From positions 1 to 40,462 of the forward strand of contig JAAZPQ010000145.1 in NCBI GenBank assembly GCA_012797175.1: a stretch of DNA of 40,462 nt, given 5' to 3'. Position 1 is the stretch's first letter. Every line of letters begins with the position of its first letter. The translations under genes were made by a program, and so were the position numbers. Under the pieces are notes generated by a model. It was not told the origin of the DNA. It made no database searches and worked only from the letters and a program-made list of their open reading frames with translations. Of the stretch, positions 1,286 through 18,635 are shown in pieces. The DNA is from Bacillota bacterium. GTDB lineage: Bacteria; Bacillota; Dethiobacteria; DTU022.

Positions 1286-2170
1286 TCAGCGGAGATAGTC
1301 GAGCAGGCTGGGCTGCAGCACCCGGGAAGCGGTCGACAGGGCAGCCCGGTAGGCGTAATCCTCCATGGCATACTCGGTAATAGCCAGGGCCAAGTCGACA
1401 TCCTCGACCTGGGAGAGCATCTCCTTCAGGTGGAGCTCCTCTTCGAAGAGGGTCTCGGCCATCGCTTCGACCCGCTTATAGCGGGCCCCGACCTCTGAAA
1501 GCCGCTCCAGCAGCAGGTCGATCCCTTCGTTGATCCCGGCCAGCGCCGCCCCGCTGAGCGCTTCCTGGTCCCCGGCCACAAGCGCCCGGCGCACCTCTGA
1601 GACCGCCTCCATCAGGCCTGTCCCGGCAAAGGCCCGCTCGCCGCTTAAGTTCATCACTATCTCCTGGTGCGGGCTGATCTCCAGGCGGCGCTCTCCCAAG
1701 TCGCCGTGGTATTCAAGGCCCCCGGCCCCCTCCCGGTAGGGAGGGCTGCCGGTACGGTGGCCCCCAAAGAGATAGAGCCCGTTGTACTCGGTGTTGCCGA
1801 CCCCGACCAGCTGCTCAGACAATTCATCTACCTCTTCAGCGATAGAGCGCAGCTCGGCGTCAGAAAGGACGCCGTTAGCCCCGTAGAGACAGAGATCGCG
1901 CAGGCGCTGGGTCACGGTTAAGCCTTCGGCCAATGCCGCTTCGGTAGCCTGCAGCCAGCCTTTCGCTTCGCTGATATTTAGGCAAAATCGTTCATTTCGG
2001 CTGATCGCATCCCGGTAACGCATTACCCGGTTCGTCCCCACCGGATCCTGGGAGGGACGCTGGAAAGCCTTCCCCGTGGAACACTGCAGCGCGCGCTGCT
2101 CCAGGCGGGCCAGGCTCTGCTGCAGGTTAACATTAACCGATTCGGCGATCATCCGGTGGGTAATCCGCAT
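1286..2170 (-). CDS. flgL: Flagellar hook-associated protein 3
   Basis: MRIT start, STGK.FQRPSQDPVG, YLFGG.RT, C-terminal QPSLLDYLR. Confidence 0.93.
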   Translation of the reverse strand: MRITHRMIAESVNVNLQQSLARLEQRALQCSTGKAFQRPSQDPVGTNRVMRYRDAISRNERFCLNISEAKGWLQATEAALAEGLTVTQRLRDLCLYGANGVLSDAELRSIAEEVDELSEQLVGVGNTEYNGLYLFGGHRTGSPPYREGAGGLEYHGDLGERRLEISPHQEIVMNLSGERAFAGTGLMEAVSEVRRALVAGDQEALSGAALAGINEGIDLLLERLSEVGARYKRVEAMAETLFEEELHLKEMLSQVEDVDLALAITEYAMEDYAYRAALSTASRVLQPSLLDYLR

Positions 2171-15452: not shown

Positions 15453-16645
15453 CGCTTTTCTTTTGCTCCCGAAGAAGTAGCCAGTTCTGAAACCCGGCAC
15501 CGCGAACCGGCAAGCAGCTGCTCGTAAAGGGATGCTGTCCGGGAAAGCATCCGCTCAAGGGTAAATTGAGCCTTGACCCGTTCGCGGCAGGCCCGCCCCA
15601 AGCGGCGGGCCTGCTCCGGATCGCGGGCCAGGGAGGCGATAGCCCGGGCCAAGGCGGCAACGTCGGCTGGTGGAACGAGAAGACCGTGCACGCCGTCAGT
15701 GATCACCTCAGGAATACCGCCGACTCGCGACGCCACCACAGCGCATCCTGAGGCCGCCGCCTCCAGAACGGTAAGCGAAAACCCTTCGGTCAACGAAGGA
15801 AGGACAAAGATATCGATACCGGCCAACCGGCGCGGCAGGTCGGTGCAGTAACCGGAAAATGAAAGTCGGCGGCCCAATCCCAGCTGCCGGGCTAGCTTCT
15901 CCAAGGCGGGACGGCCGGGACCGTCACCGATAATCAGAAAGCGCATCTGCGGAAAAAGTGGCGCCAGAACAGCAGCGGCCTTCACAAAATAGGAGAGCCC
16001 TTTTTGGGGAGCAAAGCGGGCCGCCGTGCCGACAAGTAGTGCATCTTTGCTCTGGCTGCGGGAAAACCTCTCCGCGGCAGCAGTTTCAAACGGTGCCGGA
16101 TCAATGCCGTTATGGATCACGCTGATCTGCTCCTGGAGAATACCCTGGGCGGCAAGTTCATCGGCCAGGGTGTTGGAGACAGCCACATAGTGAGCCCCCG
16201 GCGCCCCCAACAACCTGCCGGCGGCCGGTAGGTATGGAGAGGCCCGGTGGGCCGGGTAATTATGCACTGTGATCAGCACAGGGACCCGGGCCAGGCGTGC
16301 CGCGGGCAATCCGGTCAACGCCGCTTTGAACCCGTGGATATGCAGCAGGTCCGGACGAAGCGTGCGCAATAACCCGTAGAGCTGCCGGAAGGTGAACAGA
16401 TCGCCTACCGGGCTAACCCCCCCGGAGAGAGGCAGGTTGAAGGAAGAGACGGCAGGAAGCCCGGCCAAGAAGGCCGGCTCATTTTCCGGCGGCAACCCCA
16501 GATAGAGAGAGTATTCCCGGCTAAAACGGCTCAGCAATTGCCGCAGATGGGCCTGCATGCCCCCGGAAGCAGGCCGGATTAGGTAAAAGATACCACTTTT
16601 TGCCGCGCAGCCATCCCCTTCGCCCCTCTTCACCTGCAACCGCAC
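15449..16645 (-). CDS. Glycosyltransferase family 4 (GT-B)
   Basis: HIHGFKA, VIHNGID, FVLPSLTEGFSLTVLEAAASG, VASRVGGIPEVITDGVHGLLVPP. Confidence 0.92.
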   Translation of the reverse strand: MRLQVKRGEGDGCAAKSGIFYLIRPASGGMQAHLRQLLSRFSREYSLYLGLPPENEPAFLAGLPAVSSFNLPLSGGVSPVGDLFTFRQLYGLLRTLRPDLLHIHGFKAALTGLPAARLARVPVLITVHNYPAHRASPYLPAAGRLLGAPGAHYVAVSNTLADELAAQGILQEQISVIHNGIDPAPFETAAAERFSRSQSKDALLVGTAARFAPQKGLSYFVKAAAVLAPLFPQMRFLIIGDGPGRPALEKLARQLGLGRRLSFSGYCTDLPRRLAGIDIFVLPSLTEGFSLTVLEAAASGCAVVASRVGGIPEVITDGVHGLLVPPADVAALARAIASLARDPEQARRLGRACRERVKAQFTLERMLSRTASLYEQLLAGSRCRVSELATSSGAKEKR

Positions 16646-16926
16646 CTGCCTTTTTCTTAGACTACCAGTATAGGTTGCCCTTCTGCCAAAGGATCAATTA
16701 AACGACAGCACCTCTTGGCAGGGTAAAAAAATATCTTTACTTCGGCTGGTTGACGCCGGCCCACAGCAGCCTGCGGGAGGTCTCCTCGGGATCGCCGGAT
16801 GAAACTATCGGCGAGATGACCGCGGCGCTTTTTCATTTATTCATTGATCTTGACCCCCTTCTGCTTGGTTATGAAAAATAAATAAGTAGACCCGGGGATC
16901 TCTGAGATATGATCTACGTTTTTAAG

Positions 16927-16955
16927 TTGACTTCACGGCCTGGAGATGTTATCAT
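16927..16955 (+). promoter_or_regulatory. SigA promoter of the tRNA gene
   Basis: TTGACT-N17-TATCAT with an extended TGn motif, 20 nt upstream of the tRNA. Confidence 0.75.
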
Positions 16956-16974
16956 TTCACTTGCAGACAGCTAT

Positions 16975-17049
16975 GCGCCCGTGGTGAAAGGGATATCACG
17001 CAGGCCTCCGGAGCCTGAAGTCGGGGTTCGAATCCCTGCGGGCGCACCA
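16975..17049 (+). tRNA. tRNA-Arg (anticodon CCG)
   Basis: Acceptor GCGCCCG/CGGGCGC plus ACCA; D stem GTGA/TCAC; anticodon arm CAGGC-CTCCGGA-GCCTG; T loop TTCGAAT. Confidence 0.97.
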
Positions 17050-17056
17050 GACGATC

Positions 17057-17088
17057 GGGCAACCCACCGGTAGGGTTGCTTATTTTTT
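17057..17088 (+). terminator. Intrinsic terminator after the tRNA
   Basis: GGCAACCC/GGGTTGCT stem followed by TATTTTTT. Confidence 0.75.
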
Positions 17089-17108
17089 AACTTTTTTTGC
17101 TCTCCCTA

Positions 17109-17137
17109 TTGCCATGCTGAAAGAAACAGAATATGAT
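17109..17137 (+). promoter_or_regulatory. SigA promoter of mgtE, defining a leader of about 135 nt
   Basis: TTGCCA-N17-TATGAT. Confidence 0.65.
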
Positions 17138-17141
17138 CAGA

Positions 17142-17279
17142 TGGGCATACCATGACGACCTGAGAAGGGTGGTGGGGTTATGGAAGCAGAAGACTTTCCC
17201 GATCACGGCCGCTATCAAGTAATCAACTATTTTTTGGCAACCATGCCGCTACAAAACCCTGCCCAGGAGGTCTCTTCTC
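17142..17279 (+). ncRNA. Candidate cis-regulatory leader RNA of mgtE (not M-box)
   Basis: CAUGAC/GUUAUG stem enclosing a CCU-GAGA-AGG GNRA hairpin; GGCA-ACCA-UGCC hairpin; 5' UGGGCA complementary to UGCCCA abutting the SD. Confidence 0.4.
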
Positions 17280-18635
17280 ATGTCCATTCCCGATATCTCT
17301 TTTTTGGAACAGGTCCGTAACGAACTAGGGCCGCAGGGTTCCCCGGAGGCTCTGAATGAGCTGATCGGCGAACTGCCGCCCTATGATTTATCAATTCTGT
17401 TAAACAATCTGACCGATCCCGAACAGCTTCTCCTACTCGCTGCGCTTCCTCCCGAAACAACCGCAGAGACACTGGAGCATTTCGAACCGGTAGAGCAGTA
17501 CCGCTTTCTGGACCACCTGGACCCTGAAATCACGGCCAGCATTCTGAACCTGATGCCGAGCGACGCCATAGTAGAGCTCTTTACGGCGCTACACCCCCGG
17601 CAGACCGAGCAGCTCTTTGCGCTGCTGCGCGAGCCCTTTCAAAGCCAGATCCACGACCAGATGTCTTATCCCGAAAACAGCGCCGGCAGCCTGGCCTCGG
17701 TAGACTATATCGCCGCCCGGCGCTGGTGGACTGCAGAGCAGACCCTCGCCCATATGCGCAAGGTAAAAGCCACGGCAGAGCTCTACAATTATATCTATGT
17801 CCTCGACCACCGGGGAGAACTGGTCGGGGTGCTCTCCCTGCGGCAGCTTATCCTGGCCGATCCGGCCACCCGGCTGGAGGAGATCATGGTAAAAAAGTTA
17901 ATCACCGTGCCAGCCAAGCTCGACCAGGAGCAAGCAGCCCAACTGCTAGCCCGCTACGACCTGATCGCCCTGCCGGTGATCAGCGACAGCGGTAAAATGG
18001 TGGGCATCCTTACGGTCGACGATATCATCGATGTCCTCGAAGAAGAGGCTACCGAAGATATCCACCTGCTCGGCGGGAGCGGCCCGGTGGATACTCCTTA
18101 TTTGAAAACCAGGTTTGTTACTTTTTTCCGCAAGCGGATTGTCTGGCTGCTGCTACTTTTTGTAGCGGAAGCCTTTACCGGAAACATTCTCCGTTATTAC
18201 GAAAGCCTGCTCACCCAGGTCGTAGCTCTCTCTTTTTTCATCCCCCTGCTCATCGACACGGCCGGCAACGCCGGCACCCAGACATCGACCCTGGTGATCC
18301 GGGCGATGTCGGTCGGGGAGATCCGCAGCAGCGACTTTTTGAAGGTAATCTGGCGGGAGATGCGCCTGGGGCTAACCCTGGCCCTGCCCATGGCCGGGGT
18401 TACCTTCCTGTGGGCCATGATGCTGGGCAGCCCGGTTAATTTAAGCCTCACCGTCTCGGCCACGATAATTGTGATCATCACGTTGAGTTCTACTCTCGGA
18501 GCAATCATGCCCATTGTCGGTAAAAAATTAGGCTTCGATCCGGCGGTCTTCTCTTCCCCGATGATCACTACCCTGACCGATGCCGTGGGGCTCTTGATCT
18601 ACTTTCGCTTTGCCCGACTGCTGATGGGGCTATAA
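17280..18635 (+). CDS. mgtE: Magnesium transporter MgtE
   Basis: MgtE N-domain, YPENSAGS, CBS pair, GILTVDDIIDVLEEEATEDI, FFIPLLIDTAGNAGTQ, DPAVFSSPMITTLTDAVG; AGGAGG RBS. Confidence 0.96.
   Translation: MSIPDISFLEQVRNELGPQGSPEALNELIGELPPYDLSILLNNLTDPEQLLLLAALPPETTAETLEHFEPVEQYRFLDHLDPEITASILNLMPSDAIVELFTALHPRQTEQLFALLREPFQSQIHDQMSYPENSAGSLASVDYIAARRWWTAEQTLAHMRKVKATAELYNYIYVLDHRGELVGVLSLRQLILADPATRLEEIMVKKLITVPAKLDQEQAAQLLARYDLIALPVISDSGKMVGILTVDDIIDVLEEEATEDIHLLGGSGPVDTPYLKTRFVTFFRKRIVWLLLLFVAEAFTGNILRYYESLLTQVVALSFFIPLLIDTAGNAGTQTSTLVIRAMSVGEIRSSDFLKVIWREMRLGLTLALPMAGVTFLWAMMLGSPVNLSLTVSATIIVIITLSSTLGAIMPIVGKKLGFDPAVFSSPMITTLTDAVGLLIYFRFARLLMGL

Follow-up and report, generated by a model that had tools for sequence, protein, structure and literature searches.

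Mg2+ import in the Bacillota is usually ascribed to the M-box riboswitch, and the locus described here raises the question of how the gene for an Mg2+ channel, mgtE, is controlled in a genome that has no M-box. The stretch of DNA analyzed (called the window below) comprises 40,462 nt of contig JAAZPQ010000145.1 from the Bacillota bacterium assembly GCA_012797175.1, of the lineage Dethiobacteria; DTU022. It carries, on the plus strand, a complete mgtE gene (positions 17280–18635), the product of which has the Pfam domains MgtE_N, CBS and MgtE and has orthologues in related genomes. A preliminary description of the window, made from the sequence alone, had read the mgtE leader as a candidate Mg2+ riboswitch or attenuator. 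We propose, with a probability of about 0.7, that this leader is a ribosome-coupled translational switch, that is, a case of translational control by a leader peptide. The leader has an upstream open reading frame (uORF) with a coding signature and a covarying long-range helix that overlaps both start sites, that of the uORF and that of mgtE, and it is linked one-to-one with mgtE.

Related leaders were collected by a DNA search combined with a protein-anchored search, which yielded eight and then 10 leaders, and a covariance model (R1) was built from these. A genome-wide search with the DNA pattern GGWGGTGGNNNTRTGGANNNNGANGA returned mostly noise and added two orthologous loci (L281 and L296). 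R1 had exactly one match per genome in 22 of the 73 genomes of the window's family, distributed over nine of its 23 genera, and no match in 42 genomes of other families of the order. All 22 matches lie directly upstream of an orthologous mgtE gene (MgtE identity of 56–100%), and every complete orthologous mgtE gene in the family has one copy of the leader. A scan of metagenomes with the MgtE sequence recovered hardly any close relatives (identities of only 53% and 68%). Since the 13 closest sequences share 77–86% MgtE identity with the protein of the window, conservation of the leader might reflect nothing more than chance and recent common ancestry, with no function. We find this explanation scarcely credible, because the element persists over nine genera, down to 56% MgtE identity, while its flanks and interior have diverged, and because compensatory changes in its helix recur independently.

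The pairing between a 5′ block of the leader and the mgtE start region was first seen with RNAalifold on the first alignment. It consists of two helices on either side of the mgtE Shine-Dalgarno (SD) sequence. The 5′ strand of helix 1, ACCUGAGAAGGG (17158–17169), pairs with the spacer between the mgtE SD and AUG and with the start codon itself, the 3′ strand being CUCUUCUCAUGU (17272–17283), which contains the mgtE AUG (17280–17282). The 5′ strand of helix 2, GUGGGGUUAUGG (17172–17183), contains the uORF start codon and pairs with C-UACA..ACCCUGC (17249–17262), just 5′ of the mgtE SD. The latter (AGGAGG, 17265–17270) is looped out between the helices and is unpaired in the duplex of 22/22 leaders. 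All four strands, which are on the plus strand of the window, were supported by RNAalifold and by covariation; further support came from duplex energy (both 5′ strands and the 3′ strand of helix 1), tree mapping (both 5′ strands and the 3′ strand of helix 2) and minimum-free-energy folding (both strands of helix 1).

Over the 22 leaders, 92% of the helix cells were paired, versus 40–57% when the partners were slid by one to three columns. Double-sided changes were found in 27 cells, as against 9.6 ± 3.1 in shuffles (0/500), and eight pairs covary. As the alignment of the 22 leaders had been fitted to the model, the duplex was also checked by an alignment-free approach: the energy of the arm-to-arm duplex ranged from -27.5 to -37.9 kcal/mol in 22/22 leaders, with shuffled means of -13 to -25. 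The helix also formed part of the unconstrained minimum-free-energy fold in 22/22 leaders. Mapping onto the MgtE tree identified about 10 independent compensatory events, several of them passing through G-U intermediates. When applied to the gappy model-fitted alignment, RNAalifold returned helix 1 but not helix 2; the support for helix 2 consists of the RNAalifold result on the first alignment, the pairing and covariation of its cells, and the duplex energy.

This is not the fold that had been put forward in the preliminary description. The complementary words listed there do occur in the leader at the positions given, but the hairpins built from them fared poorly as a real structure. The minimum free energy of the leader was unexceptional relative to dinucleotide shuffles (z = -0.59, with 48 of 200 shuffles folding as well), and folding with the flanks added was equally uninformative (z = +0.59). 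The four proposed stems had 62% of their cells paired over eight orthologous leaders, which is the level obtained by column shuffling (183/500). The GGG:CCC core of the UGGGCA/UGCCCA pairing and the middle pair of the CCU/AGG hairpin were found in the window alone, and the mutually exclusive folds inferred from such pairings are likewise specific to the window and not kept in its relatives. Both the GGCA-ACCA-UGCC hairpin and the mini-ORF AUG-ACG-ACC-UGA (AUGACGACCUGA) fall in sequence that is not conserved. The blocks CUGAGAAGGG and GAAGCAGAAGA, which had looked familiar from mgtE leaders of other Firmicutes, are indeed conserved, but only within the window's family and for reasons other than those proposed. 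A check for covariation in mgtE upstream regions, one of the steps advocated in that description, does reveal a conserved covarying helix, but a single long-range one with different partners, and the uORF had been overlooked.

Another step advocated, a comparison with known RNA families, was performed with all 4227 models of Rfam 15 over positions 16850–17400, at the gathering score and at E ≤ 10. Only the upstream tRNA scored; the leader had no match to any known family, including the enterobacterial mgtA leader (Mg_sensor). The M-box (RF00380) was absent from the leader at both thresholds, as originally claimed, and from the whole genome of the window, whereas the control genomes of B. subtilis and L. 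lactis do score. In the family, just two of 73 genomes had one, in each case on a contig that does not carry mgtE. These two M-boxes are those of loci L333 (genome G073) and L334 (genome G016); in the latter genome, the next long open reading frame, 440 nt downstream, encodes a protein of the beta-lactamase family.

A conserved structured leader at the place where an M-box might be expected, in a genome without one and a family with only two, would suit a riboswitch of a new type, binding a metal or a metabolite, or an attenuator that acts through a terminator. We nevertheless consider such an element very unlikely. An aptamer core, in the form of a multi-helix junction with invariant unpaired nucleotides, was not found in the leader: the consensus fold obtained with RNAalifold consists of the closing helix only, and the interior of about 65 nt varies in both length and sequence (79–127 nt from uORF start to mgtE start) and carries a protein-coding signature. 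No terminator was found in the leader either, the only terminator-like site in positions 16600–17400 being that of the tRNA gene, upstream of the mgtE promoter. Neither were the stems of the preliminary description conserved. What stands of that first reading is a conserved, non-M-box regulatory leader, the 5′ part of which pairs with the mgtE ribosome-binding region, with partners other than those suggested.

The uORF (17180–17320, plus strand) has 46 codons and begins MEAEDFPDHGRY. It crosses the mgtE SD and AUG in the +2 frame, and its stop codon lies 41 nt into mgtE. The corresponding frame is open through the interior and through the mgtE SD and AUG in 22/22 leaders, across 13 different leader lengths, whereas the remaining frames are open in just 10/21 and 4/21. 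The uORF is 40–81 codons long among the relatives, is never in the frame of mgtE and ends 28–143 nt inside that gene in all leaders. The most conserved block of the leader, GAGAAGGGAGGUGGGGCUGUGGAAGCAGAAGAU, consists of a strong SD and, 7 nt further on, a GUG codon. The window, with an AUG at 17180, is the sole leader of the 22 to depart from GUG, and this substitution costs helix 2 one of its pairs (17180 with 17252).

Over codons 2–7, column entropy was 0.51 bits at the first codon position, 0.27 bits at the second and 1.39 bits at the third, a periodicity typical of coding sequence, and the three indels in the N-terminal stretch are all multiples of three. The conserved peptide can be written M-[E/D]-x-[E/D]-[D/E]-hydrophobic-P-x-[P/S] (MEAEDFPD in the window). 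Conservation of the uORF is confined to codons 1–9; beyond these, only what the overlapping mgtE start region imposes is retained. An N-terminus is considered ribosome-destabilizing if at least four of the six residues following the methionine are D, E or P (bioRxiv 10.1101/2021.02.02.429294). At least four such residues are present among residues 2–7 in 19 of the 22 leaders, and within the first 11 residues in 21 of the 22; the EAEDFP of the window, with four of six, is of this MgtL type. These features suggest that the uORF is probably translated in vivo.

The extended SD of the uORF, AGAAGGGUGGUG (17163–17174, plus strand; AGAAGGGAGGUG in most relatives), lies inside the 5′ arm and is supported by the energy of its duplex with the anti-SD. 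The form AGAAGGGAGGUG is complementary to 12 nt of the 3′ end of the 16S rRNA, GGAUCACCUCCUUUCU, which was verified, with a 16-nt pattern and Rfam, in a genome of the family that carries the leader (G020). The predicted energy of this duplex is -16.5 kcal/mol in the window, with a family mean of -20.0, and that of the mgtE SD is -12.7. The uORF SD covers seven of the 11 nt of the helix 1 strand, such that a 30S subunit and the 3′ arm would compete for the same bases.

An N-terminus under purifying selection and always beside mgtE might also belong to a small protein acting in trans, for example as a modulator of MgtE, in the manner of MgtR, MgtS and MgtU on MgtA, MgtB or MgtC. This possibility is highly improbable, given that only about nine residues are conserved and that the remainder of the product is of variable length (40–81 aa), shifts frame relative to mgtE and is shaped by the overlapping mgtE SD and coding sequence; in addition, the leader peptide had no match to any model of Pfam or NCBIfam.

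The coding signature also bears on a simpler explanation, in which the helix acts by itself, as a mask of the start site or a stabilizer of the 5′ end, perhaps sensitive to Mg2+ or temperature, with the uORF incidental to a strong SD-like purine tract. The helix is the best-supported feature of the leader, Mg2+ stabilizes RNA helices generally, and a ribosome mask applied in silico frees the site only in part. We consider this explanation unlikely all the same, as it would account neither for the codon periodicity (0.51/0.27/1.39) and the in-frame N-terminal indels, nor for a frame kept open across a variable interior in 22/22 leaders, against 10/21 and 4/21 for the other frames, nor for the conserved block GAAGCAGAAGAU..CC, which sits outside the helix.

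The ribosome-coupled switch that we favor would operate as follows. The mRNA would begin just upstream of the purine-rich 5′ arm, which would serve as the very strong ribosome-binding site and the start codon of the uORF. The pyrimidine-rich 3′ arm, transcribed some 70–100 nt later, would pair with the 5′ arm in two helices, burying the start codons of both mgtE and the uORF, together with the spacer between the mgtE SD and AUG, and leaving only the mgtE SD in an internal loop. With its start sites closed in this way, mgtE would be poorly translated by default. A ribosome capturing the 5′ arm, through the 12-nt SD:anti-SD duplex, would compete directly with the 3′ arm, possibly during transcription, and a ribosome translating the whole uORF would have to cross and unzip the mgtE start region. 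The behavior of uORF ribosomes, at the 5′ arm and over the mgtE start, would thus set how often the latter is free, and we infer a coupling of this kind between uORF translation and the accessibility of the mgtE start. The sensor would be the acidic, proline-containing N-terminus, M-[E/D]-x-[E/D]-[D/E]-hydrophobic-P; in MgtL and MgtQ, N-termini of this kind cause ribosomes to pause or become unstable at low Mg2+ concentrations. At low Mg2+ concentrations, ribosomes would linger or abort at codons 2–7, tethered to the extended SD, such that the 5′ arm would be occupied, there would be no traffic over the mgtE start, and mgtE would be translated. At high concentrations, read-through would occlude the mgtE start, and the helix would re-form behind the ribosomes. 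The opposite wiring is also conceivable, with read-through unzipping the start region and activating mgtE, and arrest at high Mg2+ concentrations repressing it. The former direction of response is presumed, and preferred here to the latter, by analogy with known systems.

Several observations weigh against the mechanism outlined above. Mg2+ is the putative signal on two grounds only, the nature of the regulated gene and analogy. No alternative, anti-closing helix and no third or fourth pairing segment was found to be conserved in the leaders, whether by RNAalifold or in minimum-free-energy folds, and the window taken alone folds no better than shuffles when the 5′ tail is included. In silico masking of the 5′ arm from position -18 opened the mgtE start region only in part (the unpaired value rising from 0.29 to 0.44, and from 0.13 to 0.34 for the mgtE AUG), and masking of an elongating footprint at -2 to +33 opened nothing. 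With effects this weak, the step in which a stalled ribosome opens the site is not supported by thermodynamics alone. In the leader of the window itself, a U replaces an A in the uORF SD (GGGUGGUG), weakening the duplex to -16.5 kcal/mol, and the peptide lacks the second proline present in relatives. Finally, in the comparable leaders of the Lachnospiraceae considered below, the peptide motif lies at codons 9–16, and its distance from the 5′ arm is too great for masking with an identical geometry.

A sigma-70-like promoter, TTGCCA-17-TATGAT (17109–17137, plus strand; -35 at 17109–17114 and -10 at 17132–17137), matches the consensus at 10 of 12 positions, and its hexamers, as TTGCCA, TTGCTA or TTGTCA and TATGAT or TATACT, are retained in almost all of the 22 relatives shown. 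This bears out the promoter and the leader of about 135 nt reported in the preliminary description; from the sequence, transcription of mgtE is predicted to start near 17144, giving a leader of about 136 nt. Upstream, on the same strand, lie a tRNA-Arg(CCG) gene (16975–17049; ARAGORN, Rfam and alignment), in a synteny kept in most relatives, and its intrinsic terminator (17057–17090), with a 9-bp stem (17057–17081) followed by a T run, which is kept in relatives as a compensated hairpin. As this terminator lies between the tRNA gene and the mgtE promoter, mgtE would form a transcription unit separate from the tRNA. In the genus of the window and in one sister genus, the tRNA gene, terminator and mgtE promoter (16975–17137) are conserved together as a block, and the terminator stem has diverged by compensatory substitutions in the alignment of relatives.

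A second MgtE paralogue (33–39% identity) is present family-wide, without the leader element. In the genome of the window, this paralogous mgtE (L415; genome G000, contig C176:5400-7200; 38% identity to the MgtE of the window) has a short, plain leader with no uORF, and a 6S RNA gene, identified with Rfam, lies directly upstream together with its terminator (L415 positions 1489–1671, minus strand). Another genome (G036, contig C195:41503-44472) has a tandem pair of mgtE genes, with 64% and 61% identity to the protein of the window, in which the leader precedes the first gene only.

We investigated whether leaders of similar design precede mgtE in other Bacillota. A scan of 142 diverse mgtE loci for SD-led uORFs overlapping the mgtE start identified 38, versus about 20 expected from shuffles, and about 30 of the 38 share, by eye, a motif of the D-x-P-x-P type. 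In a second set, from the Lachnospiraceae (loci L335–L414, L335 being that of Butyrivibrio sp. JL13D10, NZ_CP172573.1, about 90 nt upstream of mgtE; also L040, L095 and L103), a start-overlapping uORF was found at 53 of 79 mgtE loci. About 50 of these loci have GAAAGGWGGUGGUUUUU-AUG, followed by ...S-x-D-N-P-L-P-x-R, and the uORFs stop 16–89 nt inside mgtE. An inner helix, GUGGUUUUU:AAAAACCAC, found independently by RNAalifold and with covariation in five of eight pairs, joins the spacer between the uORF SD and AUG to AAAAACCAC upstream of the mgtE SD, and a second, outer helix lies over the mgtE SD or spacer. In the Erysipelotrichaceae (L076, L085, L107, L151 and L161, with mgtE downstream of rpsO), uORFs encoding MFYxDNDVPEP overlap the mgtE start, where ACAAUUAU is the pairing partner of the spacer GUGAUUGU; in one of these leaders (L076), the two strands carry matching insertions (AUUUGU/ACAAAU).

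The leaders of these two families resemble that of the window in having a strong SD, an acidic, proline-containing uORF overlapping the mgtE start, and an inner and an outer helix. They differ from it in the position of the motif, which is at codons 9–16 there and at codons 2–7 here, and in the mgtE SD, which is paired there and looped out here. No Rfam match was obtained in the leader of 20 loci of the Lachnospiraceae and Erysipelotrichaceae types, and R1 detected no leader of either family at E ≤ 1; we therefore treat them as instances of the same design, not as demonstrable homologues. Separately, four mgtE loci of the Oscillospiraceae (L047, L053, L054 and L064) have in common a sequence, ...GAGAACG...GUGCCUUGU..., about 30–100 nt upstream of mgtE, with no match to the M-box or any other Rfam family and no such uORF, which may represent another type of mgtE leader.

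We suggest, tentatively and at somewhat less than even odds, that the leader of the window represents one lineage within a large class of Mg2+ sensors, based on the ribosome and as yet undescribed. In this class, an acidic, proline-containing nascent peptide would report the cytoplasmic Mg2+ concentration from within the ribosome and gate an mgtE mRNA that closes on itself. The class would stand in for the M-box in many anaerobic Bacillota, and its origin would be independent of that of MgtL and MgtQ in enterobacteria. Its motifs may be D/E-D/E-x-P in the window's family, S-D-N-P-L-P-x-R in the Lachnospiraceae and D-N-D-V-P-E-P in the Erysipelotrichaceae. If mgtE is controlled by a leader peptide, sensing through the translating ribosome, as worked out for MgtL and MgtQ in enterobacteria, would extend to distant anaerobes and serve another family of transporters, and the RNA design would be a simpler one, with two arms. 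At about 140 nt, the element is small, and it lends itself to clear mutational predictions, making acidic and proline-rich nascent chains approachable as general Mg2+ sensors. For annotators, it is a reminder that "structured leaders" may be hidden coding uORFs.

The searchable literature contains MgtL, MgtQ and the mgtCBR leader ORFs, an M-box-controlled uORF in Mycobacterium and an "mgtE motif" restricted to Thioalkalivibrio; no leader combining a uORF and a helix was found in it for mgtE in the Bacillota. The EPDP motif at the N-terminus of MgtL, in Salmonella and E. coli, causes ribosomes to abort translation at low Mg2+ concentrations, which switches the leader RNA and induces mgtA. The leader described here likewise has a leader ORF before the gene for an Mg2+ importer, rich in D, E and P immediately after the methionine (EAEDFP, DADDYPSP and NSDDIPRP, for the EPDP of MgtL). 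It differs in its host, an anaerobic member of the Bacillota, in the importer, an MgtE channel rather than a P-type ATPase, and in its uORF of 40–81 codons, which overlaps the start of the main gene. It has no sequence or covariance-model similarity to the MgtL leader and no Rfam match. Its output is apparently the masking of a start site, whereas that of MgtL is Rho-dependent termination through alternative stem-loops, and no such alternative stem-loops were found to be conserved in the leaders examined.

The closest known working principle is that of mgtQ, an 8-codon ORF between mgtC and mgtB in Salmonella, the acidic codons of which promote mgtB translation by freeing a sequestered ribosome-binding site (PMC8092293). 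In both cases, the uORF encodes acidic residues and the ribosome-binding region of the transporter gene is sequestered in an inhibitory helix. However, mgtQ has three regions with alternative pairings (1:2 versus 2:3), whereas only two arms were found here. In addition, mgtQ is intergenic within an operon and ends before the ribosome-binding site, whereas the uORF described here runs through the mgtE start, and its own ribosome-binding site is the sequence that sequesters that of mgtE.

The M-box (ykoK, RF00380) occupies the same place, the mgtE leader of Bacillota, and presumably serves the same Mg2+-dependent control, but it is a protein-free, metal-binding aptamer with a terminator, neither of which is present here. 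As in the ermC, MifM-yidC2 and SecM-secA attenuators, a ribosome on the leader ORF would decide whether a base-paired downstream ribosome-binding site is exposed. The structure disrupted in those attenuators is a local hairpin, immediately 3′ of the stall site, whereas here a helix with a range of about 100 nt closes the whole leader, and the initiation region of the leader ORF is itself one of its strands. The working principle is already known, but not this family of leaders, its architecture of two arms or its occurrence in this host group.

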